The notes under the pieces were generated by a model. The model did no database searches. It saw only the letters and a list, made by a program, of their open reading frames with translations, and was not told the origin of the DNA. A stretch of 64,000 nt of DNA from an uncultured Candidatus Poseidoniales archaeon. Its GTDB lineage: Archaea; Thermoplasmatota; Poseidoniia; Poseidoniales; Thalassarchaeaceae. Of the stretch, positions 7,728 through 41,772 are shown piece by piece; the stretch's first letter is position 1, and the number at the start of each line of letters is the position of its first letter. The stretch covers positions 43,571-107,570 of the forward strand of contig CACKMK010000002.1 of the NCBI GenBank assembly GCA_902601345.1. Reading direction: 5' to 3'. A program made the position numbers and the translations under genes.

Positions 7728-7855
7728 TCTACCTGATATGGCCTTGACGTAATGTCATGAAGATTGCCTTCATTGAGGTGAATTTCGAGCAAGATGACGG
7801 TGAATGTTCTTGGACGGCCTCTTCGGAGTGGTTAGTGTTGTCGCGAGGGGAAGGC

Positions 7856-10800: not shown

Positions 10801-11689
10801 AGGAGGTGTAGCGTGCCGAATAATCGGGTGGACCGATGCGTCTGCAGGCTACGCCCACCCGCTATTTCATGCTGCGAAGAGGCGTAACTGCGATGGGGAC
10901 GAGGATAGCATAATGATGCTGATGGATGGTCTACTGAATTTTACACAGACCATCCTGCCTGCGAACAGGGGAGGTAGAATGGATGCCCCCCTAGTTCTGA
11001 CGACTCGTCTTAATCCCAGCGAAATCGACAAGGAGGCTTTGAACGTGGATTGCGCCTGGTTTTACAGCAGAGATTTCTTTGAGTCTACTCTAGACCAGCC
11101 ACATCCAAAGGATATCAGGGACCTGATGGACATTGTAGAGGACCGTCTCGGGATGATTGGTGAAATTAGAGGCTACGGATGGACTCACGATTCTGGACCA
11201 TTGGACGCTGGTCCGGAGAATTCCTCATACAAGACGCTAGTCACGATGAAGGACAAGTTAGACAGACAACTGAGTCTAGGCAAGACTCTACGCCCAGTTG
11301 CTGCAGATAGAGTTGCCAAACAGGTAATCGAATCGCACTTCCTACCAGACATGAGGGGCAATCTGATGGCATACACTAGGCAGAAAATAAGATGTGTGAA
11401 GTGCGGCGAGTCATACCGGAGGATGCCGCTAGCGGGAAAGTGTATCAAGAATAAGCCGGCATCTGGTGGATTCTCAGGTGGAGAATTAGATTCGGGTTGC
11501 GGAGGGAACGTTGTACTGACTGTCTCTGAGGGCGCTGTTAGGAAGTACATCCAGATAACGGAGGACATCATGAATGAATTCGGAATAGATGACTACACAA
11601 AGCACAGGGTTGGGTGGATGTCTTCAAGCGTGGACTCGTTGTTCAATAATGACAAGGTTACCGTGATGACCCTTGAGGACTTCATCTAA
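7856..11689 (+). CDS. polC: DNA polymerase II (PolD) large subunit DP2
   Basis: ~1277 aa from the Met at 7856. N-terminus MSKNIRAEEIDVKRLEIERSDYYESLDKEIEEAYTIAAEAKKKGLDFSESVEIPRASDLASRTE aligns with the DP2 N-terminal pattern YFE.L..EI..AY.IA..A...G.D.S..VEIP.A.D.A.R.E. Cys clusters sit near the C-terminus (CQKCGKETPHVTCHH; CVKCGESYRRMPLAGKC). The track ORF starts 99 nt earlier, leaving only 29 bp to divergent pyrE. No intein-sized insertion. Confidence 0.9.
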   Translation: MSKNIRAEEIDVKRLEIERSDYYESLDKEIEEAYTIAAEAKKKGLDFSESVEIPRASDLASRTEKLLEDPYLYVDPDQRAKQPLKIEGYLRELLQKHDRESAAIMIAIHVTKEMHSATGDRRRAIDSGLRVGLAVLTEAVLVAPLDGIGEVRIMSNSDGSEFLSIDFCGPIRAAGGTAQALGVLIGDILRREIGVGRYIPTVPEVERVKEEFGLYRANLQFKPEPEETDLIVNECPVMINGEETERMECAGYKEVRNIVNDNGSFRTRVRGGVMLVIAEGLCLKAPKIRSHTERLGVPGWDFISKFADKKKDGKSETTELKSRVLEKEGRYMEDVIAGRPVFGEPREPGGFRLRYGRSRATGLAAAGLNPITMEALGGFLSVGTQMKIEGPGKACAVTPCVDIDGPTVLLRNGEFVRVGSQEEWKRCEGELLSIWDAGEILLGYGEFLENNKSLSPSSYSVDWWSVDLADSLDSHEKIESFAEIIGVKVGKLPPGMPFNGAISRGGESRLERSLRKRSWISYLKSLELSWDMVKEICESFGTAVPPPWNLWWSDLPIQFLPPLANEIESYGKIEGSSLRIGKSVEGWPYSFDKDSIGLANPILGEWPRWTEVYRHGLVKSSLMTLGLVHHHEGSDIVIPLHWEGLLDGLGLGEADGRIIVRREVDSLVSQTVGKISEVLNSKKKEDREKRAVDDYLVERSLSLVRKVSELPRWEDSVPCRIGARMGRPEKSGVREMSPMVHSLFPIGENGGPQRLVSEASSRGAIRVTVGPRICQKCGKETPHVTCHHRPDPKEPIECGGRTLEGPSRNRRGRRKGEITAVNLGSILEVKRRRLGLDRIPSKIKAVKGLVSKDQAPEQIEKGILRGLHGLSVFRDGTARFDMSDVPVTHFRPSEIGTSWKRLVELGYTHDHVGEPLKNDEQLLELLPQDFIPSRLASNHLLSTCSFVDDLLVRFYEMPPFYIAKNPEDIVGHIAIGLAPHTSGGVACRIIGWTDASAGYAHPLFHAAKRRNCDGDEDSIMMLMDGLLNFTQTILPANRGGRMDAPLVLTTRLNPSEIDKEALNVDCAWFYSRDFFESTLDQPHPKDIRDLMDIVEDRLGMIGEIRGYGWTHDSGPLDAGPENSSYKTLVTMKDKLDRQLSLGKTLRPVAADRVAKQVIESHFLPDMRGNLMAYTRQKIRCVKCGESYRRMPLAGKCIKNKPASGGFSGGELDSGCGGNVVLTVSEGAVRKYIQITEDIMNEFGIDDYTKHRVGWMSSSVDSLFNNDKVTVMTLEDFI

Positions 11690-12686: not shown

Positions 12687-12719
12687 ATGGCGAATGGCAT
12701 CAAGTCTTCTGCGCTATCG

Positions 12720-14522
12720 CTATGCTCCTGTCTGGAAAAGGCCCACTGACTGGTCCAGGATCCATGCGCTGAAGAAGTTCGCAAGACCTGCCACCCACAT
12801 CATCTGAATCATCTGTCCGAGGACCAGTGTGGTCCCGCCCCCTCTGATCCTAGCGGTTATGAGACCGAGAATGACAATTGAGATGACGATTAGGAAAGAT
12901 CCCATGTATTGGAAGACCCGGATATTCTGTTCAATCCCTCCTGTCTCTGCCAAAGCCGGTAACGCAACGTCTACGCCTCCGGCCGCGGTACCGACCTCAC
13001 CCGCTCCATCGACTAGTCCCTGAGCCACCGAAGCTATCGTCTCACCTAGACCGGCAATAATCGATGTAGTGATGTTGAGAGCGATAATCATCGCAATTAG
13101 GAGACCGTAGGAGACGCTCCTCATCACGTTGGCTGAAATCTGTCTCCTCTGCCTGAGCCCTAACAAACTAGTCGTACTCTGAGAGACCATGTCTCCAACC
13201 AGACCAGCCTCACCGGTGGAAGATGATCCCTCGATGAAAACCCTCGTGAACCTGGATACGAGCATTGAATTGTTGTCGGCTGCAAACCAATCCCATGAGT
13301 AGTCGCTGTCTATCCTCATGGACAGCCTCTTCTCAAGATTGGAGATTGAGTCGTCTAGGGCTCCGAAATCGATACCTGACAGCGCCTTTACCATGGCGCT
13401 GGGTTCCTGGGCCCTGGCTTGTGCAGTTCCTCCGAAGGCTCGAATGAACTCTGGGAAAGCGTCGTCCCTCCTTCTCACTCTTGTCTCCTCCTGAAGGGTT
13501 AGTAGGGCTGGTGCGAGCAGTGGCGACATCATAGCAGCAATCACCAGAAGTCCGAAGTAGTTCCACTGTTCGAACAGGATATCCGTCCCGTAGACAATGA
13601 AGACTGTGGAAATGAGTAATACCATTATCGTACCGAGTATGCCCGCAAAAATCCACGATCTACGCATGTCAATCGCCTGTTCTGTGTTGAATCCGTGTTT
13701 GGCGAAGAGGTCCTCGTCCGGAATAACCAGAGTGAATAGGTACCATGCTCCAATCTGTAGCAACGCGAAGAGTGTCCCCGTGAGGAGAACCCACCTCGCT
13801 CTTATTATCACCTCGAACGGATTCGATGTCTCCGCTCCCGTCTGGAAGAGTATGAGATGAAGGCCGGAAACCACTAGGAGAAGAAGCCCTGTTGTAGTCA
13901 GGGACACGAAGGTCTCCCTCAGAGTATCCAACTGCTCAAGCCTAGCATCGTAGATGGTGGTATAGGCCTGCTCGAAGGTCTCGTTCTCACTGGAGAAGAA
14001 CTCCCCGATTGGTTGCCCCACTTCCACGGAGAAGGCCATCCTGTCTAGGAAGTCGCTCCATATAGCCGACGGGCTCTGTCTTCCGACTATTCTTGCTGCC
14101 TCGGGTAGGTTAGTATGCCATTTGGTGACTAGGGTCTCTATCGCTTGGATCTCGTGAGCCAGTGCTCCGTAGTCACCCATCTCCTTCAGTACGTCGAACA
14201 TCCCCTTCTCGGCCGACTCTCCCATGGAAAGAATCCCCATCCTCGTCATGAACATGTGCATATCTTGCTCTATCTGGATTGCCTCTGCTGAAACCTGTGC
14301 CACCGGATAAGCAAGAGTGCCGGCAAAGGCCAGTGCCGGGAATAAGAGAATCATGAGTACTGCGGAAGGTCCCGTAATGACATCGCTCACGGTATACCAG
14401 ACTGCAATACCGGCGACTAGCCCCACTAAGGACACTGGCAGTGCGAAGAAAAGGAGGTAGTTCCTGAATGGCATTCCCAGACGGAGGAGTGCGATCTCCC
14501 ATGTGCTGGCCTTGTCCTCCAT
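12720..14522 (-). CDS. flaJ: Archaellum membrane platform protein FlaJ (TadC/GspF-like)
   Basis: 600-aa polytopic membrane protein immediately downstream of the FlaI ATPase. Size and operon position are typical of FlaJ. Confidence 0.7.
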   Translation of the reverse strand: MEDKASTWEIALLRLGMPFRNYLLFFALPVSLVGLVAGIAVWYTVSDVITGPSAVLMILLFPALAFAGTLAYPVAQVSAEAIQIEQDMHMFMTRMGILSMGESAEKGMFDVLKEMGDYGALAHEIQAIETLVTKWHTNLPEAARIVGRQSPSAIWSDFLDRMAFSVEVGQPIGEFFSSENETFEQAYTTIYDARLEQLDTLRETFVSLTTTGLLLLVVSGLHLILFQTGAETSNPFEVIIRARWVLLTGTLFALLQIGAWYLFTLVIPDEDLFAKHGFNTEQAIDMRRSWIFAGILGTIMVLLISTVFIVYGTDILFEQWNYFGLLVIAAMMSPLLAPALLTLQEETRVRRRDDAFPEFIRAFGGTAQARAQEPSAMVKALSGIDFGALDDSISNLEKRLSMRIDSDYSWDWFAADNNSMLVSRFTRVFIEGSSSTGEAGLVGDMVSQSTTSLLGLRQRRQISANVMRSVSYGLLIAMIIALNITTSIIAGLGETIASVAQGLVDGAGEVGTAAGGVDVALPALAETGGIEQNIRVFQYMGSFLIVISIVILGLITARIRGGGTTLVLGQMIQMMWVAGLANFFSAWILDQSVGLFQTGA

Positions 14523-14534
14523 ATGGAATCATTC

Positions 14535-16283
14535 CTAGTGATTGATTCCCGTCCAGGTCTCCAGTGCGGATGCAAACCTGTCCCAACCCTCTTTGTAGTA
14601 CACGTCTAATAAATCAAAAACGTCATCGTAGTGAGTTAGGTCTCTGTCGCACATCCTCTGGATGGCCTCTGTCCTTCTCTGCAACTCATCGTAGATGTCT
14701 CGCTTGCTCCGGAATCCCATCCTAGGGGCGATCTTGTTCTCCAGCATATCGGACTGGAACATCCCTCTGAAGTAGACCTCATCCGCCACTGGATCCCATT
14801 CGAACATATTTCTGGTGAGGATACCGTCAGCGGTCTTGTCGAATCCAATCACCTCGCTGACGCCGGTTATCCTCCTGGCTATACCCCCTCCTGGGGCTTC
14901 GACCACTTCCTGGAAGATTGCGAAGTTCAGGTTGTCGAAGAATCGGGCTGGGACGTTAATCGGGTCTCCTGTGAATCTCTGGATAAGCTTGACGATGTTA
15001 GAGGCGTGGAAGGTACCGACCACGGGGTGCCCTGTCTGCATAGCTTGGAAGGCGATTGCTCCCTCTACCCCCCTGATCTCCCCTATTATGATGTATCGGG
15101 GCCTGGATCTTAGTGCTGCCTTGAGCAGATCGAACATCTCCACTCTGGAGTCCTCATTCTTTGAGTCCCTGGTGATTAGCCTCTGCCATATTGTGTGAGC
15201 CACCTTGACCTCAGGAGTGTCCTCTGCTGTGTATATCTTGACATTGTGATCTATGAATGGGAGTACCGCGTTCAGCGTGGTGGTCTTTCCTGAGGCCGTC
15301 TCCCCCGAGACCAGCATGGACATCCCGGACTCCAGACCAAGCCAGATATATGCGGCCATCTGGGCGGATAGTGTCTTCCACTTGATCAACTGGATGATGG
15401 ATATGGTCTCCTCAGCGAACTTCCTTATCGTGAATGAAGAACCCTGGATAGAGACATCGTCGCTGTAGATTATGTTGATTCTAGAACCATCCAGCAGGGC
15501 ACCGTCGACAATCGGCTTGCTGTCAGATACTGGCCTCCCTATCCTTTCTGACATTGACCTCAGGTACTTGGTGAGAAGCTCCTGATCCCTGAATGCGATG
15601 TTTGAGGTAAGCATCGGGAAGACCTTGTGATCCATATTTATCCGAGATAGCCCGATCGAGTGAATATCCTCCAGCATCTCGTCGGCTAGAAGTGTCTCTA
15701 GAGGGCCGTTGTTAACTAGGTCCCTGACCACCACGTACTTGAGCCGATCGAGTTGTTCTGGTGTGACCTTGATTGGGGCCTCGCCCATGCCTATCAGTTC
15801 CCTTGCTTGGTTCACAACTGGATTGGAGAGAAGTGACGATGAAGTGGTGGTGGTCATCTCATCCATCATTTCGTGAATCATTGCGATGAATTCCTCGTCA
15901 TTGTCGAATCGCTCCTTCTGGGGAGCGTCTCTGAGGAGCCTTTCCACGATACGGTCCCTGATTTCGTCCTCCTCGTCTGTGATAGTTGGCTCTAGCCCGA
16001 ACCAGAAGGTGTTCCCTGCTCCTTCGGCTCCCTCAGGAGGGGAGTAGACATGTGCGAAGCAAGGAGGCTTTGTGGCGTAAATCAGGTTACGGGGGCTGAC
16101 GCTCTTCGCATCCCTGTCCAGAGGGCCATAGTAAATCGGCCTGGACCCGTGTTCTGCCTCGAACTGCTCGACCCATTCGCGGATATGTGGGTACTCGGCC
16201 ATGAGGCCACCGAGGTCGCCAGGCTCGATATTGAACTCTGGCTGTTTTCGGTCATCTTCGCTGGACTCTTGCTCGGTAACCAT
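14535..16283 (-). CDS. flaI: Archaellum ATPase FlaI (type II/IV secretion system ATPase family)
   Basis: 582 aa. Walker A is SGETASGKTTTLNAVLPF. YIIIGEIRGVEGAIAFQAMQTGHPVVGTFHASN matches the VirB11/FlaI His-box region. Confidence 0.85.
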   Translation of the reverse strand: MVTEQESSEDDRKQPEFNIEPGDLGGLMAEYPHIREWVEQFEAEHGSRPIYYGPLDRDAKSVSPRNLIYATKPPCFAHVYSPPEGAEGAGNTFWFGLEPTITDEEDEIRDRIVERLLRDAPQKERFDNDEEFIAMIHEMMDEMTTTTSSSLLSNPVVNQARELIGMGEAPIKVTPEQLDRLKYVVVRDLVNNGPLETLLADEMLEDIHSIGLSRINMDHKVFPMLTSNIAFRDQELLTKYLRSMSERIGRPVSDSKPIVDGALLDGSRINIIYSDDVSIQGSSFTIRKFAEETISIIQLIKWKTLSAQMAAYIWLGLESGMSMLVSGETASGKTTTLNAVLPFIDHNVKIYTAEDTPEVKVAHTIWQRLITRDSKNEDSRVEMFDLLKAALRSRPRYIIIGEIRGVEGAIAFQAMQTGHPVVGTFHASNIVKLIQRFTGDPINVPARFFDNLNFAIFQEVVEAPGGGIARRITGVSEVIGFDKTADGILTRNMFEWDPVADEVYFRGMFQSDMLENKIAPRMGFRSKRDIYDELQRRTEAIQRMCDRDLTHYDDVFDLLDVYYKEGWDRFASALETWTGINH

Positions 16284-16293
16284 TCAATCAACC

Positions 16294-16992
16294 TCATGCT
16301 ACAGCTGTGATATCCACGATGAATCCCATCTCGGGCATAACCTTCCATCCGATTCTCTCAGTCACTGGTCCCGCGGCTCGAAGGAATCGAGTGACGCTGA
16401 CGGTCCTGACAAGCTGTCCACCAACGACTGCGGTCATCATATCCAGCACGACCTCAGCGGAGTTCTTCATGTCCCTGAGGGTGTGGCTGTCCATCTCTTC
16501 GGGATCAATCGTCAATATCAGGGTACGACCCTCTGAGGTGAACTTCCGGAGAACCCTCAAAAGCTCCTTGCTCGACATATCATCTGGCATCAGCTCTGAG
16601 GCCCTGTCAATGATTACCACGTCTGCCTCCTTCGAGGCCGGTGACTCAAGTAGATTCAGCAGGGTTACTGGCTCTTCGGATGGTTCGGCAATGACTCCGA
16701 AGCTGGAAATCAGGTGGAATGATCCCTCGTCGATCCTCTTGTCCATGTAGTATCCGATGCTGGAAACCTGCTCAAGCCAGCCCCTCGTGGTTAGCTCGGT
16801 GGTGTATAGTGAGACTTTGACGTCGTTCGCTGTCATTCCGAATGACATTCGCTGTCCAATGATGCTCTTTCCGGAGCCAATGCCTCCGCAAACGAGCATC
16901 AGTGCCCTATTCGGGATGGCAGTCCCCATGCTCTGCCCCAGGCTGTCCTGGATTACCCCGAACTCGAAATTGTCGACGTTAGCTTGTGACAA
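16294..16992 (-). CDS. flaH: Archaellum protein FlaH (KaiC/RecA-like ATPase fold)
   Basis: 232 aa. Walker A is ALMLVCGGIGSGKSIIGQRM. KaiC-like architecture, located directly upstream of flaI. Confidence 0.7.
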   Translation of the reverse strand: MSQANVDNFEFGVIQDSLGQSMGTAIPNRALMLVCGGIGSGKSIIGQRMSFGMTANDVKVSLYTTELTTRGWLEQVSSIGYYMDKRIDEGSFHLISSFGVIAEPSEEPVTLLNLLESPASKEADVVIIDRASELMPDDMSSKELLRVLRKFTSEGRTLILTIDPEEMDSHTLRDMKNSAEVVLDMMTAVVGGQLVRTVSVTRFLRAAGPVTERIGWKVMPEMGFIVDITAVA

Positions 16993-17458
16993 GTCTTACT
17001 TCCTCCGAAACTGTGTATGCCCCAGCGTAACCCGTTGCAGTCGATACAACCGTTATTGTCATTATTACATCATTGGTGCCGGTGTAGCTGAGGGTATCGC
17101 TGGTATCGTCGACTGTGAACTGGACGATCTGCCCTTGTACCCAAGTCGTAGAACCGTCTGCGACTGACACGGTCATTGGGGTCCCCTCGATGTAGACTCC
17201 TATGGTTTCTAGGTCCAATTGCGTCTCGCCGGAATTCTGAATGTACAGTGTTGCCCTCTTCTCTGTGTCATCCCAACCTACATTGCTTGGGTCATTGACT
17301 AGGGATGCTCTGGTACGGACGTCCTCAGCGCCCTCCTTGCCCCTATCCTCGATTGCAGAGTCCATGTCCCCCCATGTGTCCAGGAGTACGCCTGAAACTA
17401 GGCCTGCTACTATCAACCCGGCAATGAGGAGAATGATCTCTGAGGGTCCGTTAGCCAT
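16979..17458 (-). CDS. FlaG-like archaellum protein (N-terminal TM anchor)
   Basis: 159 aa. N-terminal hydrophobic helix EIILLIAGLIVAGLVSGVLL is followed by a beta-rich soluble domain. Position between the FlaF-like gene and flaH matches the euryarchaeal flaF-flaG-flaH order. Confidence 0.4.
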   Translation of the reverse strand: MANGPSEIILLIAGLIVAGLVSGVLLDTWGDMDSAIEDRGKEGAEDVRTRASLVNDPSNVGWDDTEKRATLYIQNSGETQLDLETIGVYIEGTPMTVSVADGSTTWVQGQIVQFTVDDTSDTLSYTGTNDVIMTITVVSTATGYAGAYTVSEEVRLVTS

Positions 17459-17469
17459 CTATTCTCACC

Positions 17470-18234
17470 TCATGAAATTGTTACCGAAACCGCGTCGTTG
17501 TAGTCGTATATGGCTAGGAATGCCCTGTCTGGGTCTGCGTCTACAGAGAATCCATGGCTTGCCAAGGATAAAGGGAATGGCTCTGTGGATATCTCCTCAC
17601 CGGGGAAGAGGTACAGGTTTCCCCCGGTATAGTGGTCTGTGAACTGGAATGGTATGCCCTGTTGAATAGGGGAGGTGTCCGAGAGCGTAATCACCACGTG
17701 AGACAATTCAACCGTCTCTGAGCCTGTGTTGCTGATGGATATGGTATTCTGGTCCTCGATCGCTGTGATTGTGTAGGTGGCTGTTCCATCGGAGCCATCG
17801 GAGCCGCAGTCTATCGTCACGACCTCGGCAACGGCGTATCCGTTTCCTGGTACAAGGGTGGCACCGTTGTATCCATCAACCTCACCATCGCCATTAGCAT
17901 CGAGGATTTCGATAGTTGCCCCAGCGCCTGAGGAGCTGCTGACTAGGTCGCATGTTGTCCCTGAGATGTAGTCGCTGCCCCCGGAGTTTACTCCACCCGT
18001 CCAAGAAAGGGTGGAGACTGGCCCCGTTGACTCCTGCTTGTCAGTGACGCTCACTATCACGACCTCAGGGTCGGGTAGCTCGTAATCCGTGTTCTTGATC
18101 GACTCGTTGACGCTGTCGACCAGTGTGACGGTGGCCATTCCGAAGATCATTATGAAGACGGTGCCGACGACCATCGCAGCTACGCTAGAACCAGCCAATA
18201 CCCATCCCCCTATGGAGTCCCCTGGGCCCTCCAA
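17470..18234 (-). CDS. FlaF-like archaellum protein (N-terminal TM anchor, beta-sandwich)
   Basis: 254 aa. N-terminal TM segment is VAAMVVGTVFIMIFGMATVTL. G/S/T-rich beta-rich C-terminal part. Operon position assigns it to FlaF/FlaG. Longer than a typical FlaF. Confidence 0.4.
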   Translation of the reverse strand: MEGPGDSIGGWVLAGSSVAAMVVGTVFIMIFGMATVTLVDSVNESIKNTDYELPDPEVVIVSVTDKQESTGPVSTLSWTGGVNSGGSDYISGTTCDLVSSSSGAGATIEILDANGDGEVDGYNGATLVPGNGYAVAEVVTIDCGSDGSDGTATYTITAIEDQNTISISNTGSETVELSHVVITLSDTSPIQQGIPFQFTDHYTGGNLYLFPGEEISTEPFPLSLASHGFSVDADPDRAFLAIYDYNDAVSVTIS

Positions 18235-19028
18235 GCCTCGATCATCGCTGCGAAGGTCAGGAGCGTCCTGTTGTCAACCGCTGGTGCTCCCTCTGACTCT
18301 GCCCCGGCCTCTGCCAGCGCGGCGATTGAGCTCAGCGCCTTCTCCTCTGCCGCGGTGATCACTCCCGACTTGGAGGCGGCCTTTAGGAATCCCAGCGTGT
18401 CTGCCCCGCTCATGTTGTCGAGCAGAAGGGCTACTATCTTGGTGGGGTCAACTGACGGCCCGTGCATCAAGGCGTCTGCCTCCCCGCTCTTCAGGAAGGG
18501 GTTGACTGCCAAGGACTGGGCCTCGTAGAGGTCTAGGAGGCCCGGGCCTCCGGCCTTTCCACCGTGGGATAGAGGCCCTTCGACCTCGGACGCGGGAGAG
18601 TCTGCGGGTCGGCTAGTGACCTCTCCGTCATCGCCCACGGTGTGGATCACGTCCTGGGAAGCGCCTGCGGAGGCGCTAGCCGCAGATACCGAATCGGCTG
18701 CTATCTTCGCTGTCTGCTGGGCGGTCATCTTGATGTTGGCCTCCATCAGGTCCATTGCCGTCTCCAGCCTCTCGAACCTGTCCTTGACCATGTCCACCAG
18801 CTCCGGGATCTTGTCCTGCCCCTGGCTCGCCTGAGGGTCGCCGAGAACCCCGACCCTGGTCCCGGAGGGGGCGAAAAGCCACGCCTCTAGGTCCGTCGGC
18901 CTGAACTCGGTTGGGATGTCCACGTGCTCGACGCTTAGCCTGGCTACCTTGTCCAGCCTGGATGACATCCCGGGGTCGGCATCGGAGGAGCCACTAGAGC
19001 CAGACCTGAATTTGTCTAGTAATCCCAT
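18210..19028 (-). CDS. FlaC/FlaD/FlaE-family archaellum accessory protein (tentative)
   Basis: 272-aa soluble, Ala/Ser-rich protein. Sits between the archaellins and FlaF/G, where flaC/D/E genes occur in euryarchaeal fla operons. Assignment is by position only. Confidence 0.35.
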   Translation of the reverse strand: MGLLDKFRSGSSGSSDADPGMSSRLDKVARLSVEHVDIPTEFRPTDLEAWLFAPSGTRVGVLGDPQASQGQDKIPELVDMVKDRFERLETAMDLMEANIKMTAQQTAKIAADSVSAASASAGASQDVIHTVGDDGEVTSRPADSPASEVEGPLSHGGKAGGPGLLDLYEAQSLAVNPFLKSGEADALMHGPSVDPTKIVALLLDNMSGADTLGFLKAASKSGVITAAEEKALSSIAALAEAGAESEGAPAVDNRTLLTFAAMIEAWRAQGTP

Positions 19029-19078
19029 TCCAACACCTCATGATCCCACCTCGCAAGGCACCTCTAACCCTAAAGGTC

Positions 19079-19738
19079 TCACATCATCGAGGAGCCCAAA
19101 GTCAGGGAGTGTACTGTAAACTCCGTTAGGGTCTCTCCACCGCCGTCTACGACTATGCGCATGTTCAGTGTCTCACCTTGGGTTGCAGTGGTGTCGCAAC
19201 CTGGGTTGACATCATCTGTGTCCACATCACCGTCACTGTCAACGTCCGAGTTTCCTAGGGTAACCGTGGTGTAGTAGGTGTTTCCGGCCGACAGCTCGGT
19301 AGTGCCGGCTATTGGAGTCTCGGTGATTATGCTGGATGCTGGGAGGGTTCCGTCGTCGAACCCGAGACCCAGTCCGGTGTGAGCGCTGAGATCGCACGTG
19401 ATATAGTAGGAGACGTCACCCGGGTAGATGCCGGTTGAACCGGACGATACCCTCCATACGACGTCGAACGTAGCCACGTGGCTTCCTGCTCCTATGTCGT
19501 CAGCGATGGTATTCACAATCAAGTCCGTGAGCGCGACCTTACCGGATATCTGCTGTCTGGTGTCGCTGCTGGTCTGCTCTGCGTTCTGCTGTAGCTCTTC
19601 GGCGGTCTTGATGATGATCGTCGAAGCAACTGCGGCCACTAGGATCAGGGCGATGAAGACGATCATCGCACCGATACCGATTGAGCCCGAGTCCTCTTTG
19701 TCCCTTGGAATTCTCTCGTTCATGCTATCGCCTCCCAT
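19079..19738 (-). CDS. flaB: Archaellin (FlaB), class III signal peptide
   Basis: 219 aa. DSGSIGIGAMIVFIALILVAAVASTIIIKTAEELQQNAEQ matches the archaellin N-terminal consensus (G-IGTLIVFIAMVLVAAVA). The C-terminus is a variable Thr/Asp-rich beta domain. Confidence 0.8.
   Translation of the reverse strand: MGGDSMNERIPRDKEDSGSIGIGAMIVFIALILVAAVASTIIIKTAEELQQNAEQTSSDTRQQISGKVALTDLIVNTIADDIGAGSHVATFDVVWRVSSGSTGIYPGDVSYYITCDLSAHTGLGLGFDDGTLPASSIITETPIAGTTELSAGNTYYTTVTLGNSDVDSDGDVDTDDVNPGCDTTATQGETLNMRIVVDGGGETLTEFTVHSLTLGSSMM
19560..19681. repeat. 122-bp perfect direct repeat, copy A (5' coding region of archaellin)
   Basis: gtgtcgctgctggtctgctctgcgttctgctgtagctcttcggcggtcttgatgatgatcgtcgaagcaactgcggccactaggatcagggcgatgaagacgatcatcgcaccgataccgat recurs identically at 20205-20326. 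Confidence 0.9.
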
Positions 19739-20374
19739 CTAAACCACCGATGCCCCCGAGGTTAGTGAGTCTATCTTCAGTTCTGTAACGGTCGTGCCAC
19801 CATCGGTTACGATGATCTTGAGGAGCATCGTCTCGCCGATTCCGCCTAGGGCGTCGCAGTCCCCTCCGTTGGTTATTATGTCGAAGCGGAATACGGTTCC
19901 AGCGTCCATCTCAAGGGACCCGAAGTCGGAGCCGTCGAGGTTGTCCGCGTTCTGTGACTCTGTTCCGTCGATGGTGCCACCTTCAGCATCGGTTCCCCCT
20001 AGTGCGGAGGTGCCGAGGTTACCTGCTACGAGCCCGTAGCTTGCACTGTCACCGCATGTGAGGAGCCAGTTGATGTTCTGGGCAACCAGGTTCTGGGCTC
20101 CAGCGGCGACCTTGGCCGTGAAGACCATGCTCTCGACGTCGGTCGCGCTCGATGTGTTCACCAGCGCCTGTACGATGTTGATCTTCCCGGAAATCTCCTT
20201 CCTCGTGTCGCTGCTGGTCTGCTCTGCGTTCTGCTGTAGCTCTTCGGCGGTCTTGATGATGATCGTCGAAGCAACTGCGGCCACTAGGATCAGGGCGATG
20301 AAGACGATCATCGCACCGATACCGATGGAGCCTTCCTCTCGGTTTCTTTCTACTGTCTGGTATTCTTCGCTCAT
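19739..20374 (-). CDS. flaB: Archaellin (FlaB), class III signal peptide, paralogue
   Basis: 211 aa. The N-terminal ~50 residues are near-identical to the downstream archaellin (EGSIGIGAMIVFIALILVAAVASTIIIKTAEELQQNAEQTSSDTR). C-terminal domain is divergent. Confidence 0.8.
   Translation of the reverse strand: MSEEYQTVERNREEGSIGIGAMIVFIALILVAAVASTIIIKTAEELQQNAEQTSSDTRKEISGKINIVQALVNTSSATDVESMVFTAKVAAGAQNLVAQNINWLLTCGDSASYGLVAGNLGTSALGGTDAEGGTIDGTESQNADNLDGSDFGSLEMDAGTVFRFDIITNGGDCDALGGIGETMLLKIIVTDGGTTVTELKIDSLTSGASVV
20205..20326. repeat. 122-bp perfect direct repeat, copy B (5' coding region of archaellin)
   Basis: Identical to 19560-19681 by eye. Divergence starts one nucleotide after each end. 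Confidence 0.9.
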
Positions 20375-20462
20375 TGCGTGTTCACCCGTGCCCCCCTGTG
20401 AATGCTAATCATTTATGATATTACTGGAAAATGTGCTGGATAATCCAGTTCTGAGCGGTAAA
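20375..20462 (-). promoter_or_regulatory. Putative promoter / 5' leader of the archaellin operon
   Basis: 88-bp AT-enriched intergenic stretch upstream of the first archaellin. The minus-strand reading contains cataaatgatta (TATA-like) about 35 nt before the ATG. No experimental support. Confidence 0.25.
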
Positions 20463-21506
20463 TTAGCTACCGATTCCTACTGCTTCTCGCAGGTTCAGTA
20501 CCTCGATGGGAACGTGAACGACATCCCCTGGTCCAAGGTTCTCCACGAGTGGGAGCCTCATCGTCTCGAATCCCTCTGGCATCCATGGATCCAACAGGAG
20601 ACCCTGCATGATGTTCGGAGTCCTGTTTTCTACCCTGGTCTGGACATTCAGGCTACCGTACTCGACGTCATATCCGGTGGTGATGTTCAGGCTGCTTCCA
20701 AGGAGTGCTGTGGATGGGAAGGATCCGGATGGCCTGATCTCGATCCCGATCTCGATGAAGCCATCTGGGGGTATCTCGGGAATCTCGCACATCTTCGGAG
20801 TGGCAGACCACCCGTACGGTATTGGCGGGGCAAGCCTCATTGTGGAGATGTTGTTCTCGCCGGTGTTCTCTAGTGTAATTACCATCAGGGCGTGGTCCTT
20901 GCCCTCTGGCCATGTCGTCCCTATAGAAAGGAAGAAGCTGTTCACTAGGAAGGGGCTGGCAGCCTCGTTGACAGCGACTGGGCCGAGTGCGCTGATTGCG
21001 TCCTCGAACGCCTTTGCCGCGGACGAGAGGTCGGAGTCGAGTGCCTCCTTACCCTGGTTGACCAGCGTGAGTGCGATGTCCTCTATGTCGCTGAGCTCAC
21101 CCATCTCGTTGAGGTGCCTTCCAAGGGTGTTCAGTGACCTCTCGAGTCCGTCTTTGCCCATCGATGCGACTGCGCCCTCTACGCAATCTGCTGCTGCTCC
21201 CCAGTTCCCCTCCCTGAGGTGCTGCAGGCCTAGCATTGTCAGGTCCCAGGCGTTGCGATCGCCTTCTGACATCTGCTCGAGCTCCTCGAGGGATCGCTCT
21301 AGCGATGATAGCGCCCTGTAGAGGTCCATGATCTGTCCTTCTGCCTCTTCGACCTCCTTCGATAGGTCTCTCAGCATCTTTCTGGCGCCTATAGGCCTGT
21401 TTGCCCAGATTGCGAATTGGATGTTCTCGGCCTCTTCCTCGATGTAGTCGATCCGCTTGAGAGTGGCCTCGGCCCCTCCCGTTGCGGGTGCCTTCGTCCG
21501 TGCCAT
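20463..21506 (-). CDS. Hypothetical protein, archaellum-operon associated (helical N-terminal half, beta-rich C-terminal half)
   Basis: 347 aa. No family recognised by eye. Start codon lies 2 nt from the stop of the giant surface protein gene and directly upstream of flaB, which suggests co-transcription. Confidence 0.5.
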   Translation of the reverse strand: MARTKAPATGGAEATLKRIDYIEEEAENIQFAIWANRPIGARKMLRDLSKEVEEAEGQIMDLYRALSSLERSLEELEQMSEGDRNAWDLTMLGLQHLREGNWGAAADCVEGAVASMGKDGLERSLNTLGRHLNEMGELSDIEDIALTLVNQGKEALDSDLSSAAKAFEDAISALGPVAVNEAASPFLVNSFFLSIGTTWPEGKDHALMVITLENTGENNISTMRLAPPIPYGWSATPKMCEIPEIPPDGFIEIGIEIRPSGSFPSTALLGSSLNITTGYDVEYGSLNVQTRVENRTPNIMQGLLLDPWMPEGFETMRLPLVENLGPGDVVHVPIEVLNLREAVGIGS

Positions 21507-21507
21507 C

Positions 21508-24500
21508 TCAGTTCCTCCCTCCTGGCTTCTGACCTGCCCTTCCGAGGATCTTCTTGATTCTGATAGCTCGGAGCTCTATATCAGCGAGTTCGCTGTAAAG
21601 CCTGTCGTAAGAGCTGTCCAGGAATTTCAGGATGATGTGCACTAGGATGGGCGAGGCGATCATGAATCCGATTATGGATATCAACGACGATGCCCCCAGA
21701 TCTATGGCGAGGGATGGTGAGATTAGTACGAATGGAAGGAAGGCGTAGGGAGAGCAGGAGATGATGGCGCGGAGCTCGTTCCTAGTGTTCTGCTGTTCCT
21801 TGTCGTGATCCTCCAACAGCGCCATCGTTCCGATTCTGGCCTTCTTCCTGTCGTCATGGATCGCCTGGAGCTCGCTGGAGGATAGCCATGCTACAAGCCC
21901 TGCGAACAAGATGGAGGCTAGAGCGCAAAGAAGTGATAGGATCGTGGAGGCGCCGGTTAGCGAGAGGGCCCCGAATGCCATTGCTGCCACGTACGAGGAC
22001 GCATGCAGGCGGCTCTCTTGCTCTTCCAGTCCCTGTCTGATGAGCGATACCGCCAAGAGGAGTAGGAGTGCTGCGATTAGAAGTGCGGACGGGAGTTGCA
22101 GACCGGATAGTTCGACGGCTGGGGTGGACCATGAGTCAATGGACAGGTCCTCCGTCCTGACGTCATTTTCTACGACGTTGCCGAAGATTCCGCCCATCTG
22201 CATTATGATGTCCGGATAGGTGATGGATGCGGAGCAAGTCAGTGTCTCTGAGGACTTGTACCATGGGATTGGGTTTAGTTCCACGGCCCAGGAAGCAGTG
22301 AAGTTCCCGTTTGCCTCAAGAGCTGGTATCGGGTACGATGCGAACATGTTCGTCACGTCTGCGTAAGGCGTGGGAGTGCAGTCGAGGTTCAGTTGGGACT
22401 GTGTTGGCATTACTGCGTATCCTGCGTTAATTACGGTAACGTCGATCCAAGTGCTCTCCCCCTCTACGCCCTCCCCCCTGAATGTGATGCTGTTGACGAG
22501 GGGATCCGTCGATTCTGTCATCCTGAGTCTGACGACTAGATCCGTCGAGTACTCCGTTGTCTTGGGCTCCTCTGGGTGTCTTAGTTGCAGGTAGATGTTC
22601 CATCCGTCTCCCGCTGCAACCCCGTCCAGCTGCTTCTCGGGGATAATTACCTGGAGTACGATTGTGCCCCCGTGAGCGGAGTCTGGGCTCCCTCCCTCAT
22701 AGGGAGTGGTGGCGTCGAGTTCCCAATCCGAGTTGCATGTCTCTTCCGTCGCGTCCGTGGCGGCGATACCGAATCCATCTATGTCTGCTAGTTCGCACTT
22801 CGCAGTACCTGCATCGGTGTCGTGATCGATGTATAGCCACCAATGCACCTTGGGGTAGCTGGCTGAGTCCACGAGGCGTTCTGGGGGGTCTGCTGATGCA
22901 TCGTAGGGGTCCATATCCCCGTTCAATGCCAGTGTGTAGGACCTCGGGTCGAATGAGCTGTCTCGGTAGTTTATGTCCACCCATGGTATCTCTATCTGCC
23001 TGCAATTCGGGTCGTCGTTGTTTTCGCACTGGTACTGGCCGGCGGCATCGGCGCTCAAGGTGTAAGTGTCATCGGTCTGGGCTCTGACGACGGTGATTGG
23101 GAAGGAGTTCTGCTGGGTCTCCATCGCGGCGTCCACTGGTACTCTCTTCAGGATGAATGTTCCTTGCTCGCCCTTGATCGTGTCATTATGTGTCATTGCG
23201 AATTCGAAGCTAATTGAGCTGGTCTGCCCAACCTGCAGGTACAGGTTTGTAGAGCCTAGCGAGTTTCGGACTTCGAACCTATCTGGCTTCGAATCGTCCT
23301 GTTCCGTGTCTATGGTTTCCCACTGTATTGTGAGGTTGATCGGTGCGTTGCCCTTGTTCTCCATTTCGAATTCGATTGACCTGTCCACCCCTGGGACTAT
23401 TGCTATCCTCTGTGGGGACTTGGTCAATTCCACATCGAAGACGGGGAGGACCTTGATTTTGAGCGTCGAAGTCCCAGCTGGGACGCCCCCACCCATTGCG
23501 ACCCTCTCTGACAATGGAACGGGCTGGGCCACTCCATCGACCATTTTTGTTGCAGGCCATGTGGGGAACGGGTCGGTGATGTTTACCGCTCTCATGGTTA
23601 GGTTGTGGATGACGTCGGCTACGAGAATCTGGTCTCCGTCCCTGAGAGGGGGCAGTGTGATGCTGAGGAGTACGGTACGAGACTCATACTGGTCTAGTGA
23701 GAATCCGGATTCGTTGACCTGGTAAGACCAGTTGGTCATTCCCTCTGGGAAGGTCACAGTCAAGTTCAGTGTCTCCATGAGGTTGCCGTCGTTCCGTAAA
23801 ACCACCTCTAGGTCGAGGGTGTTCCCCGGGGCTACCTGCATTTCGGTGGGAGCTATGAATAGTATTGCATGGTCAGGAGCAACCTGAACCTTCCATTCGC
23901 TTGTGGACATTAACTGGCCGTCGTGAGACGCATTCAGGAAGAAAGTCTGGTTTTCATCTGCTCTCGAGTCCTCTCCAGCAGTGGAGTAAATCCTGACGAT
24001 TCCCTGCGACCCTGCCGGGACCAACAGTGTGGATTCGGTCACACAGGGCTGCATCTCCTCAGAGAAGCAGACCCTGATCTTGTCGACATCGAGATTGTCC
24101 AGGGACAGGTTGTATGTGACGTTCTTGTTTCCTGTGTTATTGAGCAGGGCAATCAGGGTCTTCTGGCCGACTCTGCTGTCCAATGAGGGGGAAGGGGTGA
24201 TTACCGCCGTGGAAGTAGGGGGGTAGAGTTCTGCCGAGATGACTTCGGTGAGGGTGAAGAGGGCAGGGGCATATGCAAGCAGTTCTCCAGTTTCCGTGGA
24301 GTTGGCGTACACCCAGACCTGATGTGTCTCATCCGCTCTGGCTGAGGCCGGGGGAGTGGCGGTGACCGTTATTGGCCGCTGATTCTGGGTTGATGAACCG
24401 TCATTGTACAGATTCGTCATGGAGGGTACGAGGTTCGCCGCGGTGGACCCCAGGGTGATGGTCCATCCAGGCTTAGGGACGTATCCGATGGTGAAGTTTG

Positions 24501-26703
24501 CTGGATCGTTCCCTGTGTTCTCCAAAACCACCTCAGAGGATATGGGGGTCCCAGGGTCCCCATTGGCTGCTCCTGAGGAAGTCAGCTCTGCCGACCAGAG
24601 TTCTGCTATTGACATGGAAACCGTGGCTGTGGCATTACGGGAAATTGCCCCGGAGAAAGCAGCCCAAGATGATGTCGCCATGAACGAGAAGTTGAGGTGA
24701 CCCGCCGATGGGTATTGGAAGTCTGGGGTGGGGCCGAAGCTCAGTCCCACCATTCCGTATCCGGTTTCTCCTGGCAGGAGTTCCAAGGTCGAGGCGGAGG
24801 ATGAGGAAGAGGTCTGGACCGTAGCCGTCCAACGCGAATTCTCGATGAGGCTGGAGCCAGCCGGGGTATCCTGAAGAAAGACCTTCCCATTGCTACAGGT
24901 GGATTGCGTCCAAGGGCTACCCGATGCAGCAGTGGTTGGCGCTAGGGAGGTACACGGCATGGCGCTGAGGGATACTTGGGCCAAGGTGTTGTTTGAGCCG
25001 AGATTGTGAACTATCGTCACTTCGAAGCCGACGAACCTGTCGGTATTGCCCCCGATGATGTCATTGACTGAAATATCATCGATTTCACTGGTCACGGAGA
25101 TGTCCAACTCAACAATGCTGTCTATCATTAGCGTCGTCTGGTTGACTGCTGGGACTCCCCCCTGTAGGGGGATTGCTTGGACCATCAGATCCACTCTTTC
25201 TATGGAGGAGACCTTCCAGGACGGGTTCAGTGGCATCTCTAGCTCCGGGGTGGTGATTGTTACGGGAAGTGTCCTGGTCTCATTTGGCAGCAGTACGTCG
25301 GTGATTGTGACAGGTGAGTCTATGATCCAGTACGGCACCGATTCCGTCGCTCCGACATCTATCTGATACTGGGCTGGTGCGGTACCGGTGTTCATCAGGG
25401 TGTATTGTAGGGTCCTGGGGGAACCGGGGGTGATGTTCGCGAAGTTTTCTCCCATCGAATGGCTGTGGTTTTGGAAAATCTCCGCGCTGAATGTACCTCC
25501 TGCCATGACCATTGTGCTGGCTGAGAGGACGTAACCCGCCGTGTCGCTTTGAATTGTTAGGGTCACAATTACGGCGTCTCCATTGGCGGCATCCGCGGGA
25601 ACATCGACCGGGATCTGAATTGCATGGGTTTGCTGGGCGCCTACATTGAGAAGGTTGGTGGAGGAATGTATCTGATCCGTGATATTTACCCAGTAGTTGG
25701 CGGGGTCGGAGTTGTTGCTCTGTGTCACGGTGAAGTTGTCCTCAACGGTTCCAGAGTTCTGTAGTATGAAGTTCAGAGTTGCCTGCGAACCTGGGTCGAC
25801 GTTCCGGTTGTTGGCTGGTATTAGCGATGCCCTTAGGGCTACGAAGCTCACTATTCTGGAGTCGATTGTGACCGAGCCCTGTGTAGAGCCCGACACAAGT
25901 ATGCTACCACTAAGGGTGTAATCTCCTTCAAGTCCGGAGCCATCGAACGATATTGTGATATTAGCAGGGGTTGGAGGATCTGCAAGGCTTCCGGGAAGCA
26001 ATTCTTCTGTACTCGAGGAGAGGGGGACGCTCGAACCACCCAGCGACGGAGTTAGTGTTAGCTGGGCTGTGACGTCGACTGGTTGATTGCCCGTGTTGAC
26101 CACGGTGATTGCTCCTTCCCAGAGTGCTCTCGCTAGGGAAGACCCATCGGATGGTAGGGAGTCTGCGATGTCTGAGGCAGACTCCACCTCAGCGACGCTT
26201 ACACCGGATAGAGACATCTGGTTATTGCTCGAGTCCGAGTCGGAGGATGATGATGCCGGGATCCATGACGCAGTTATCTCATATCCTGTTCCTGAGAGGG
26301 AAGAGGCGTCCCAGTACATCACGCTGTTTACCTGTCCTCCAGGAGTGATGGTGGCAGTCCTGTTGTCAACGACGACCCCGTTAACCTTGAGCGTTACATT
26401 GCCTTCGGCAGTAGACCCGCCCTGATTGGTAGTCCCGACAACAATCACGTGATCAACAGGAGCCAGTGTGGGGGTTCCTCCAACCGTAGCGGAGGGTGTG
26501 GTGACGTCTAGATCGGTTACTACCACATCTGGGCCCATTTGACGAGTCGAGCTTGGCATTGGGTTCTCTTCGTCTGTAGCAACGGGAATACCAGCGAGCA
26601 GGGGGGAGAGGAAAAGTAGAGCGACTAGAATCGTGGCCTTGCTAGCCGTTCTAGTTGTCCTATGTAGGTTTCTTGAGGATTCTTGACTGGAATCTTTCAG
26701 CAT
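21508..26703 (-). CDS. Giant secreted cell-surface protein (1731 aa): N-terminal CARDB-like domain, many beta-sandwich repeats, C-terminal multi-TM anchor
   Basis: N-terminal signal peptide/TM is ATILVALLFLSPLLAGIPVA. VVVTDLDVTTPSATVGGTPTLA...GNVTLKVNGVVVD...SDSDSSNNQMS resembles a CARDB domain (ending E.NE.NN). Long Thr/Ser/Asn-rich beta-repeat body with NxT/S sequons. The C-terminal ~250 aa hold about four hydrophobic helices (LIAALLLLLAVSLI, AAMAFGALSLTGASTILSLLCALASILFAGLVAWL, FLPFVLISPSLAIDLGASSLISIIGFMIASPILVHIIL). Confidence 0.6.
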   Translation of the reverse strand: MLKDSSQESSRNLHRTTRTASKATILVALLFLSPLLAGIPVATDEENPMPSSTRQMGPDVVVTDLDVTTPSATVGGTPTLAPVDHVIVVGTTNQGGSTAEGNVTLKVNGVVVDNRTATITPGGQVNSVMYWDASSLSGTGYEITASWIPASSSSDSDSSNNQMSLSGVSVAEVESASDIADSLPSDGSSLARALWEGAITVVNTGNQPVDVTAQLTLTPSLGGSSVPLSSSTEELLPGSLADPPTPANITISFDGSGLEGDYTLSGSILVSGSTQGSVTIDSRIVSFVALRASLIPANNRNVDPGSQATLNFILQNSGTVEDNFTVTQSNNSDPANYWVNITDQIHSSTNLLNVGAQQTHAIQIPVDVPADAANGDAVIVTLTIQSDTAGYVLSASTMVMAGGTFSAEIFQNHSHSMGENFANITPGSPRTLQYTLMNTGTAPAQYQIDVGATESVPYWIIDSPVTITDVLLPNETRTLPVTITTPELEMPLNPSWKVSSIERVDLMVQAIPLQGGVPAVNQTTLMIDSIVELDISVTSEIDDISVNDIIGGNTDRFVGFEVTIVHNLGSNNTLAQVSLSAMPCTSLAPTTAASGSPWTQSTCSNGKVFLQDTPAGSSLIENSRWTATVQTSSSSSASTLELLPGETGYGMVGLSFGPTPDFQYPSAGHLNFSFMATSSWAAFSGAISRNATATVSMSIAELWSAELTSSGAANGDPGTPISSEVVLENTGNDPANFTIGYVPKPGWTITLGSTAANLVPSMTNLYNDGSSTQNQRPITVTATPPASARADETHQVWVYANSTETGELLAYAPALFTLTEVISAELYPPTSTAVITPSPSLDSRVGQKTLIALLNNTGNKNVTYNLSLDNLDVDKIRVCFSEEMQPCVTESTLLVPAGSQGIVRIYSTAGEDSRADENQTFFLNASHDGQLMSTSEWKVQVAPDHAILFIAPTEMQVAPGNTLDLEVVLRNDGNLMETLNLTVTFPEGMTNWSYQVNESGFSLDQYESRTVLLSITLPPLRDGDQILVADVIHNLTMRAVNITDPFPTWPATKMVDGVAQPVPLSERVAMGGGVPAGTSTLKIKVLPVFDVELTKSPQRIAIVPGVDRSIEFEMENKGNAPINLTIQWETIDTEQDDSKPDRFEVRNSLGSTNLYLQVGQTSSISFEFAMTHNDTIKGEQGTFILKRVPVDAAMETQQNSFPITVVRAQTDDTYTLSADAAGQYQCENNDDPNCRQIEIPWVDINYRDSSFDPRSYTLALNGDMDPYDASADPPERLVDSASYPKVHWWLYIDHDTDAGTAKCELADIDGFGIAATDATEETCNSDWELDATTPYEGGSPDSAHGGTIVLQVIIPEKQLDGVAAGDGWNIYLQLRHPEEPKTTEYSTDLVVRLRMTESTDPLVNSITFRGEGVEGESTWIDVTVINAGYAVMPTQSQLNLDCTPTPYADVTNMFASYPIPALEANGNFTASWAVELNPIPWYKSSETLTCSASITYPDIIMQMGGIFGNVVENDVRTEDLSIDSWSTPAVELSGLQLPSALLIAALLLLLAVSLIRQGLEEQESRLHASSYVAAMAFGALSLTGASTILSLLCALASILFAGLVAWLSSSELQAIHDDRKKARIGTMALLEDHDKEQQNTRNELRAIISCSPYAFLPFVLISPSLAIDLGASSLISIIGFMIASPILVHIILKFLDSSYDRLYSELADIELRAIRIKKILGRAGQKPGGRN

Positions 26704-26766
26704 CGCTTCCGCTCCCCTCCTCGTAGAGGAGACTAACCTTCATTATGAAATAACCGGAGGAAATAA

Positions 26767-41698: not shown

Positions 41699-41772
41699 TG
41701 GAGCACGAGCCGGGATTTGCACCCGGGTCCATGGATCTGCAGTCCATTGCATAGCTGCTCTGCCACTCGTGC
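41699..41772 (-). tRNA. tRNA-Cys (GCA), CCA encoded; atypical D- and T-loops
   Basis: Manual fold of the minus strand. Acceptor is GCACGAG/CTCGTGC (7 bp) with discriminator U and CCA. Anticodon stem ATGGA/TCCAT carries the loop CUGCAGA (U33, anticodon GCA, G37), identical to M. jannaschii tRNA-Cys. T-stem CCGGG/CCCGG has the loop UGCAAAU. D-arm is only ~3 bp and its loop has no GG. Confidence 0.65.

Follow-up and report, generated by a model that had tools for sequence, protein, structure and literature searches.

A 64,000-nucleotide window of an uncultured Poseidoniales archaeon (contig CACKMK010000002.1) contains an archaellum (arl, or fla) gene cluster headed, on the same strand, by two additional genes, one for an exported protein of 1731 residues (hereafter the giant) and one for an orphan protein of 347 residues (p347). 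We propose, with a probability of roughly 60%, that the giant and p347, coupled in translation, make up an accessory module of the Poseidoniales archaellum that spans the membrane and serves as a scaffold or anchor in the envelope, or in adhesion. Judged from sequence, it is very likely that the pair is functionally tied to the archaellum throughout the order, because the coupled, one-strand gene order is invariant despite reshuffling of the flanks, p347 is exclusive to the locus, and the giant occurs as a single copy whose architecture does not vary. The preliminary description of this stretch had raised the possibility of novel archaellum accessory components; given the order-wide synteny and the lack of any housekeeping family for p347, this is now a well supported hypothesis. 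The window is assigned to Marine Group IIb (MGIIb) of the order Poseidoniales, the homologues of p347 carry the label Candidatus Thalassarchaeaceae, and the ArlI of the window is 100% identical to that of the LURZ01000009.1 locus ("Marine group II euryarchaeote REDSEA-S42_B7").

Conservation of the gene order was examined in a scan anchored on ArlI, which took in one genome from each GTDB species and yielded 80 Poseidoniales loci (ArlI identity 68–100%) whose six-frame open reading frames (ORFs) were searched with the window proteins by phmmer, and in a reverse scan anchored on p347 across metagenome contigs. p347 was found directly ahead of the archaellins in all 53 of the ArlI-anchored loci that reach this position, and the giant in 51 of the 51 that reach far enough upstream. 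The loci bearing the pair include at least 15 labelled Poseidoniaceae or Poseidonia (Marine Group IIa, MGIIa) and several labelled Thalassarchaeaceae (MGIIb). The reverse scan gave the same picture, with an archaellin immediately downstream of p347 (61/61 loci) and the giant immediately upstream (61/61). The conserved unit is giant-p347-arlB(1–2)-p272-ArlF-ArlG-ArlH-ArlI-ArlJ, where p272 is a soluble protein at the ArlC/D/E position, and its surroundings differ between lineages: the unit lies between a divergent PPC-domain protein with primase and a peptidase with DP2 in window-type MGIIb loci, between AhpC and the pair HhH-GPD and PolX in MGIIa, and between four extra unknown genes and MscS in a third Poseidoniales lineage. 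The unit has thus outlasted at least three rearrangements of its flanks, with identity falling to ∼22% for p347 and ∼33% for the giant. Every homologue of p347 or the giant with an examinable context adjoins arl genes, and p347 was seen nowhere else. Synteny in relatives had been named beforehand as the observation that could sever the pair from the fla genes; the two are linked to them in all testable loci of both families.

In the window, the ORF map and translations place 11 consecutive genes on the minus strand, from 26703 down to 11682; the preliminary description had these coordinates and the strand right and counted ten genes. The gaps between them, in gene order starting at the giant, are 1, 88, 0, 50, −25, 11, −14, 10, 12, and 33 nucleotides, so that the only spacers of notable size are those between p347 and arlB1 (88 nucleotides) and between arlB2 and p272 (50 nucleotides). 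The features of the region are as follows.

26704–26800, minus strand: upstream region and 5′ leader of the giant, with the promoter-like motif TCATAATGA at 26740–26748 and the leader CTCCTCTACGAGGAGGGGAGCGGAAGCG
21508–26703, minus strand: giant protein, 1731 residues, with a signal/transmembrane segment at residues 23–41, an immunoglobulin (Ig)-like ectodomain of ∼1490 residues, and a C-terminal multi-pass anchor
21628–22095, minus strand: predicted C-terminal anchor of the giant, residues 1537–1692, with 4–5 hydrophobic helices by hydropathy, followed by the tail (residues 1693–1731)
21754–21903, minus strand: conserved K/R-rich loop of the giant, predicted to be cytoplasmic, residues 1601–1650, from the conservation profile
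20463–21506, minus strand: p347, orphan, 347 residues, from translation, hydropathy, and an AF2 model
20375–20462, minus strand: spacer between p347 and arlB1, with a hairpin and TTTT, a promoter-like motif, and a Shine-Dalgarno-like GGGTGA
19739–20374, minus strand: archaellin ArlB1, 211 residues (PF01917, E 3.4e-18), with a class III-type signal peptide and a transmembrane segment at residues 22–40
19079–19738, minus strand: archaellin ArlB2, 219 residues (PF01917, E 7.8e-12; NCBIfam flagellin, 3.8e-17)
18210–19028, minus strand: p272, soluble protein at the ArlC/D/E position, labelled by position only
17470–18234, minus strand: p254, at the ArlF position, with an N-terminal transmembrane helix and a C-terminal β domain
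16979–17458, minus strand: ArlG-like stator protein, 159 residues (NCBIfam ArlG, 3.5e-22; PF01917, 3.7e-16)
16294–16992, minus strand: ArlH, KaiC-like ATP-binding protein (PF06745, 5.7e-11)
14535–16283, minus strand: ArlI, motor/assembly ATPase (PF00437, T2SSE, 1.5e-35)
12720–14522, minus strand: ArlJ, polytopic platform protein (PF00482, T2SSF, 2.2e-6) with ∼9 transmembrane segments
11682–12686, minus strand: polytopic A24-type prepilin/prearchaellin peptidase-like protein, from weak profile matches

A single nucleotide separates the giant stop codon from the p347 start (TGA G ATG), rather than the two nucleotides first given. Across seven gene-called loci the same junction measures 1, 0, 1, −8, −8, −14, and −14 nucleotides, and in the window GGAGG lies 8 nucleotides ahead of the p347 ATG. 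Because the junction stays between −14 and +1 nucleotides and GGAGG precedes the p347 start, the arrangement is, at the level of sequence, a signature of translational coupling.

Hydropathy analysis of the giant predicts a Sec-type signal/transmembrane segment at residues 23–41, an ectodomain of ∼1490 residues, and a charged C-terminal tail, with the helices of the anchor (residues 1537–1692) parted by K/R-rich loops. Pfam matches were to FixG_C (4.8e-7), Ig_VWA7 (1.1e-6), and HYDIN-type Ig families, NCBIfam returned a weak "choice-of-anchor T" match, and a sequence search of the PDB gave generic matches only (2l0d, "cell surface protein", E 0.042). Because the matches are to FixG_C, Ig_VWA7, and HYDIN-type Ig families, and those of the orthologues vary among NEW3-, CARDB-, and Fn3-like ones, the giant is predicted to be a chain of generic E-set Ig-like domains. 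It had been introduced as a CARDB-repeat protein, an identity that was not recovered: PF07705 has no match at E ≤ 0.1 in the window protein and occurs in only a few of 72 giant orthologues, among which PF11614, PF23619, and PF10633 (NEW3) are more frequent. These 72 were all the homologues found; each is a full-length Poseidoniales orthologue of 1570–1736 residues with 33–100% identity, and none is a paralogue. A conservation profile over 28 orthologues from both families has its highest 50-residue window at residues 1601–1650 (0.64), and the C-terminal tail reaches 0.59, compared with 0.34–0.59 for the ectodomain. The motif SSxE[LF]QxIHxD...R.G is common to the giants of MGIIa and MGIIb. Neither Pfam nor NCBIfam detects a recognized adhesive domain (vWA, thrombospondin, or lectin) in the giant, and with its fixed orthologue length it falls outside the class of repeat-variable giant adhesins. 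The "adhesin-type" label of the preliminary description goes too far: the tightly constrained length, together with the multi-pass anchor, speaks more for a structural envelope component than for a repeat-variable adhesin.

These properties bear directly on a different explanation, which we regard as rather unlikely, that the giant is a co-regulated adhesin for attachment to particles or phytoplankton, with p347 as a cytoplasmic assembly or regulatory partner, and is not physically part of the archaellum. An ectodomain of Ig-like/E-set domains is typical of adhesins, and co-regulation would agree with the invariant gene order and the similar promoter-like motifs before the giant and arlB1; Rinke 2018 (PMC6461757), moreover, argues that the archaella of Marine Group II (MGII) are adhesive, chemotaxis genes being absent and flaJ enriched in particle fractions. 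Set against this are a length and architecture that stay fixed (1570–1736 residues) despite large divergence, the lack of any recognized adhesive domain, and the finding that the best-conserved parts of the giant are predicted to be intracellular, in a protein with a multi-pass anchor and a dedicated cytoplasmic partner.

It appears improbable that the giant is instead a general S-layer (surface layer)-like envelope protein of Poseidoniales whose adjacency to the arl genes is a frozen accident with no functional tie. Large size, a wealth of Ig-like domains, C-terminal anchoring, and a single copy are traits that the giant shares with many archaeal S-layer proteins, on which grounds several S-layer arCOGs were left out of the type IV pilus gene sets (Makarova 2016, PMC4858521), and the giant has a conserved upstream region of its own. 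A frozen accident is nevertheless difficult to reconcile with adjacency and strand that persist across 53 species and 61 loci from metagenomes, in two families, despite at least three flank rearrangements, or with a p347 that is never found outside the arl context. In addition, half of the MGIIb genera lack an archaellum operon according to Rinke 2018 (PMC6461757), and all homologues with examinable context lie beside arl genes, in a sample made up of genomes that have them.

p347 has neither a signal peptide nor a transmembrane or other hydrophobic segment, and the same is true of its MGIIa homologues. An in-frame stop codon is found 72 nucleotides upstream of the p347 ATG and, therefore, the protein has no hidden N terminus or signal peptide. 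The AF2 model, built from an alignment of 37 sequences (pLDDT, the predicted local distance difference test score, of 74 overall and 82–91 in the β domains), is comprised of six helices of spectrin/coiled-coil-like character (residues ∼11–173) followed by two Ig-like, NEW3-type β-sandwiches (residues ∼189–260 and 273–338). Consistent with the model, 13 of 17 p347 homologues match the NPCBM_assoc (NEW3) Ig-like family, and the N-terminal half gives weak EzrA, Spc24, and SMC-type matches. An exhaustive HMMER profile search found 39 family members among 1.84 billion cluster representatives. No relative was found in the PDB, where the matches are generic coiled-coil and Ig ones (9fyn, C-terminal domain, 1.4e-4). 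The protein was first described simply as unknown, and with profile and PDB searches yielding no housekeeping family to claim it, p347 does constitute an orphan family.

It is unlikely that p347 and/or p272 is the highly diverged cytoplasmic ring component of the ArlC/D/E or ArlX type that every archaellum needs, the cluster then being canonical plus an extra envelope protein. In favor of this reading, FlaC/D/E are often too divergent to be recognized (Makarova 2016, PMC4858521), p347 is a soluble protein whose N-terminal half resembles a coiled coil, and the best FlaC_arch match of p272 has an E of 0.039 over 15 residues only. Against it, none of the 17 homologues tried for either protein has a significant match to FlaC_arch (PF05377) or Arch_fla_DE (PF04659), the p347 gene precedes those of the archaellins and is coupled to that of the giant, the C/D/E slot is already held by p272, and the two proteins show no relationship (hhalign probability 4.5%). 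Both families carry an invariant (N/S)PF(L) motif after their helical part, at residues 184–187 of p347 and 176–179 of p272, either by coincidence or, possibly, as a short binding motif common to the two. A common FlaC-like "NPFL" module was considered and rejected on the same hhalign result; the excised segments have no Pfam match.

The giant and arlB1 genes have similar upstream sequences. Promoter-like TCATAA(A)TGA cores are located 45 nucleotides before the giant ATG and 44 nucleotides before that of arlB1, the latter within TAATATCATAAATGATTAGC (core at 20409–20418); the sequence GTTTCATAATGA(A/T)GGTTAG upstream of the giant closely resembles the motif in the arlB1 spacer, and both motifs are kept in relatives of the window clade. 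It is their position and conservation that are suggestive of a promoter role. Immediately behind the p347 stop codon, the 88-nucleotide spacer contains a small hairpin and TTTT, with GGGTGA as a Shine-Dalgarno-like element; the "TTTTCCAC" behind the stop is kept in both MGIIa and MGIIb. In MGIIa the spacer between p347 and the archaellin is 40–95 nucleotides long and has only "TTTTCCAC(C)" in common with the window. The giant leader is nearly invariant over ∼60 nucleotides among MGIIb relatives, and the sequence farther upstream varies freely. This leader (26704–26770) includes a CTCCTCTACGAGGAG hairpin, which holds a Shine-Dalgarno-like GGAGG, and GGGGAGCGGAAGCG before the ATG. Structured RNAs in the giant leader or in the p347-arlB1 spacer were considered and rejected (z −0.13 and −0.25, respectively, with no Rfam family), and a promoter/terminator scan of bacterial type is uninformative for an archaeon. 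In a Red Sea metatranscriptome analyzed by differential RNA sequencing, one of the strongest MG-II primary transcription start sites is at an archaellin-family gene (PMC5069720); such a start site would fit a dedicated archaellin promoter, and the supplementary start site tables of that study (PMC5069720) contain no entries matching the window locus. The preliminary description had inferred a single operon, which overstates the case: because the 88-nucleotide spacer bears a promoter-like motif and a similar one precedes the giant, two co-directional and probably co-regulated units appear at least as likely as one transcript. Transcription probably starts from a pair of similar promoters, ahead of the giant and ahead of arlB1, which would mean co-regulation and not one obligatory transcript.

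A trans-membrane complex is suggested because an exported Ig-rich giant whose best-conserved segments are predicted to be intracellular appears to be co-translated with a soluble p347. The giant would be exported by Sec and would form a stalk or sheet of Ig-like domains, ∼1490 residues in all, outside the cell, held in the membrane by the 4–5-helix C-terminal anchor. On the inner face, cytoplasmic p347 would bind the conserved cytoplasmic loop and the tail of the giant, and the resulting complex would work with the archaellum. Its most likely role would be to surround the motor with a dedicated scaffold or anchoring matrix in the envelope, on which the ArlF/ArlG stator braces, with filament-associated attachment as an additional or alternative role of the pair. 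The scaffold or anchor is favored because ArlF and ArlG are believed to fix the motor to the S-layer, how Thermoplasmatota without S-layers manage this has been posed as a question (PMC12448462), and S-layer-like Ig-rich proteins are encoded at archaellum loci elsewhere. A more specific form of this mechanism, tentative and in our estimate doubtful, is that the giant provides a local collar or matrix of Ig domains for the ArlF/ArlG stator and p347 clamps the cytoplasmic loop to the cytoplasmic ring of the motor, allowing torque to be generated in a lineage of Thermoplasmatota that may be devoid of a canonical S-layer.

Several observations weigh against an accessory module. The archaellum operon of Oxyplasma meridianum (Thermoplasmatales), with arlB, C, D, and F–J, works without the giant/p347 pair (PMC12448462). 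The synteny counts take in archaellum-bearing loci, so that Poseidoniales genomes lacking an archaellum lie outside the sample and the counts do not amount to a strict test of co-loss. With its hairpin, T4 run, and promoter-like motif, the 88-nucleotide spacer could make the pair a separate transcription unit. At the same time, the motif itself is not conserved in the MGIIa spacer, and its occurrences in the window do not exceed chance expectation (3 compared with 1.4 expected; 19 of 100 shuffles reach 3). Ig-like NEW3 domains are usually extracellular, which makes their presence in p347 odd, given that the protein is predicted to be cytoplasmic from its missing export signals. Finally, beyond linkage and predicted topology we infer the mechanism, and this holds throughout for the binding of p347 to the giant and for their contact with ArlF/ArlG or the motor.

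The remainder of the cluster is that of an archaellum. Both archaellins have a hydrophobic N terminus behind a short charged leader, as in the archaellins that define an arl cluster, and ArlI, ArlJ, and ArlH, the core of the euryarchaeal-type cluster, are encoded by adjacent genes. The two archaellins and the FlaH, FlaI, and FlaJ assignments made at first reading all stand on the profile matches listed above. The FlaG-like label agrees with a match to NCBIfam ArlG whose score, 79 bits, falls under the curated cutoff of 110. For p254, called FlaF-like, the transmembrane helix and the position agree with the label and the β domain bears a remote resemblance to the ArlG family (hhalign E 6.7e-5, probability 64%), but Pfam and NCBIfam profile searches gave no family match. 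p254 also bears a Gly/Asp/Ser-rich insert of ∼100 residues that varies between lineages, being found in the window clade, locus L003, and MGIIa (213 aa) and missing in L001, L016, L045, and L165. Because ArlF is the stator cap that contacts the S-layer in other archaea, the variability of p254 may, by analogy, track that of its binding partner. The FlaCDE-like label of p272 could not be upheld except as a statement of position: neither the protein nor 17 members of its family has a significant match in Pfam, NCBIfam, or the PDB. p272 was, nevertheless, present in all of the 80 ArlI-anchored loci that extend to its position.

The peptidase-like gene at the end of the cluster overlaps the convergent gene of the DP2 polymerase (7757–11689) by 8 nucleotides, an overlap already noticed in the first reading. 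Its assignment there as FlaK finds weak matches only, to Arc_PepC_II (1.9e-6, 28.8 bits against a cutoff of 29.9) and FlaK_Arch (E 1.4e-3). "SDLETLSVRN" and "GGADVK", read from its sequence, are candidate catalytic Asp motifs. Only MGIIb loci of the window type carry the gene behind arlJ. No peptidase gene lies next to arlJ in MGIIa and the other MGIIb lineages, and it is therefore either encoded elsewhere or too diverged for detection.

Other neighbors of the conserved unit vary. In MGIIa and one MGIIb subclade, a basic helical protein of ∼128–160 residues is encoded directly upstream of the giant and overlaps its start (L167:4548–5030 and L169:4599–4985, and also in L016, L017, L019, and L051); it has no Pfam match, and no homologue was found in the whole 64-kb window. 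This protein could be a regulator or a further member of the cluster that was lost or moved in the window lineage. In the third lineage (L165:1–5221 and L166:1–5221), the four unknown genes before the giant are co-oriented and tightly packed, encoding proteins of 325, 277, 148, and 1054 residues, and the gene behind arlJ is that of the MscS channel. The divergent neighbor of the giant in the window (26767–28014, plus strand) is a 415-residue protein with a PPC (pre-peptidase C-terminal) domain, homologues of which adjoin the giant in several MGIIb lineages, in some on the same strand (L027 and L045). Housekeeping genes flank the cluster in the window, namely those for DP2, a phosphoribosyltransferase-domain protein, cyclophilin, fumarase, the primase large subunit, DUF373, and QPRTase. 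Two typical MGIIa archaellum clusters, L034 (NZEQ01000038.1) and L064 (CAXRAI010000045.1), come from metagenome-assembled genomes labelled Verrucomicrobiales and Salinimicrobium, respectively, which is most likely the result of binning contamination. Unrelated to the archaellum cluster are a 651-residue protein with an Eco57I-type restriction-modification methylase domain (35150–37105, plus strand) and the sole Rfam match in the window, a tRNA (41702–41772, minus strand).

Marine Group II comprises the most abundant planktonic archaea of the surface oceans, all uncultured, and whether their archaella serve in swimming or in particle attachment is debated. Two uncharacterized genes welded to the cluster across the order are obvious candidates for what sets the MGII apparatus apart. 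Cultured Thermoplasmatota lack S-layers, and the pair could bear on what the ArlF/ArlG stator braces against in this phylum. If true, the collar-and-clamp arrangement would represent an archaellum-dedicated, genetically encoded stator scaffold across the membrane and would answer the S-layer-less question for Poseidoniales (PMC12448462). p347, in addition, offers a compact genetic marker for archaellated Poseidoniales in metagenomes.

The locus is the same as that of the operon in Tully 2019 (PMC6336850) and Rinke 2018 (PMC6461757), where conserved syntenic unannotated proteins in and around FlaAGHIJ are noted; Fig. 4 of Tully 2019 (PMC6336850) draws a "putative MGII motility operon" with "several orthologous proteins lacking annotations". 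In the sections accessible, neither paper singles out, describes, or interprets the giant and p347, the way they are coupled, their topology, or their restriction to this locus. Chemotaxis genes are not reported for MGII (PMC6461757 and PMC6864105). Compared with the canonical euryarchaeal operon (arlB-arlC/D/E-arlF-arlG-arlH-arlI-arlJ; PMC12448462), the Poseidoniales cluster has recognizable archaellins, ArlG–J in the same order, and genes filling the C/D/E and ArlF positions, but differs in its two extra conserved 5′ genes and in a p272 without detectable similarity to FlaC/D/E.

Known fla operons had been thought, in the preliminary description, to include no giant protein of this kind, yet S-layer-like multi-Ig proteins have been reported in the archaellum loci of some Methanococcales (arCOG05057) and of Thermococcales, where it has been suggested that they modify the envelope locally to suit the filament or motor (bioRxiv 10.64898/2026.04.22.720090; Makarova, Koonin & Albers 2016, PMC4858521). 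The giant resembles the arCOG05057-type proteins in architecture, being large, exported, built of multiple Ig-like folds, anchored in the membrane at its C terminus, and encoded at an arl cluster. It differs in having a multi-pass anchor whose cytoplasmic loop is conserved and in being order-wide, fixed upstream of arlB, and coupled to an orphan p347 that is undescribed for other lineages. The Sulfolobus model, in which ArlF and ArlG brace on the S-layer (PMC12448462), shares with our proposal the need for a rigid extracellular stator partner, which the giant could fill; the partner in Sulfolobus is, however, a paracrystalline S-layer (SlaA/SlaB) and not an operon-encoded giant, which in Poseidoniales is a candidate partner only. 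Thus, Ig-rich S-layer-like proteins in archaellum loci and the MGII archaellum region itself were already known, whereas the literature searched holds no description of the order-wide invariance of the giant and its coupling to an orphan, predicted cytoplasmic p347, of its multi-pass anchor and the conserved cytoplasmic loop in it, of the exclusivity of p347 to the archaellum locus, or of an MGII cluster missing a recognizable ArlC/D/E.

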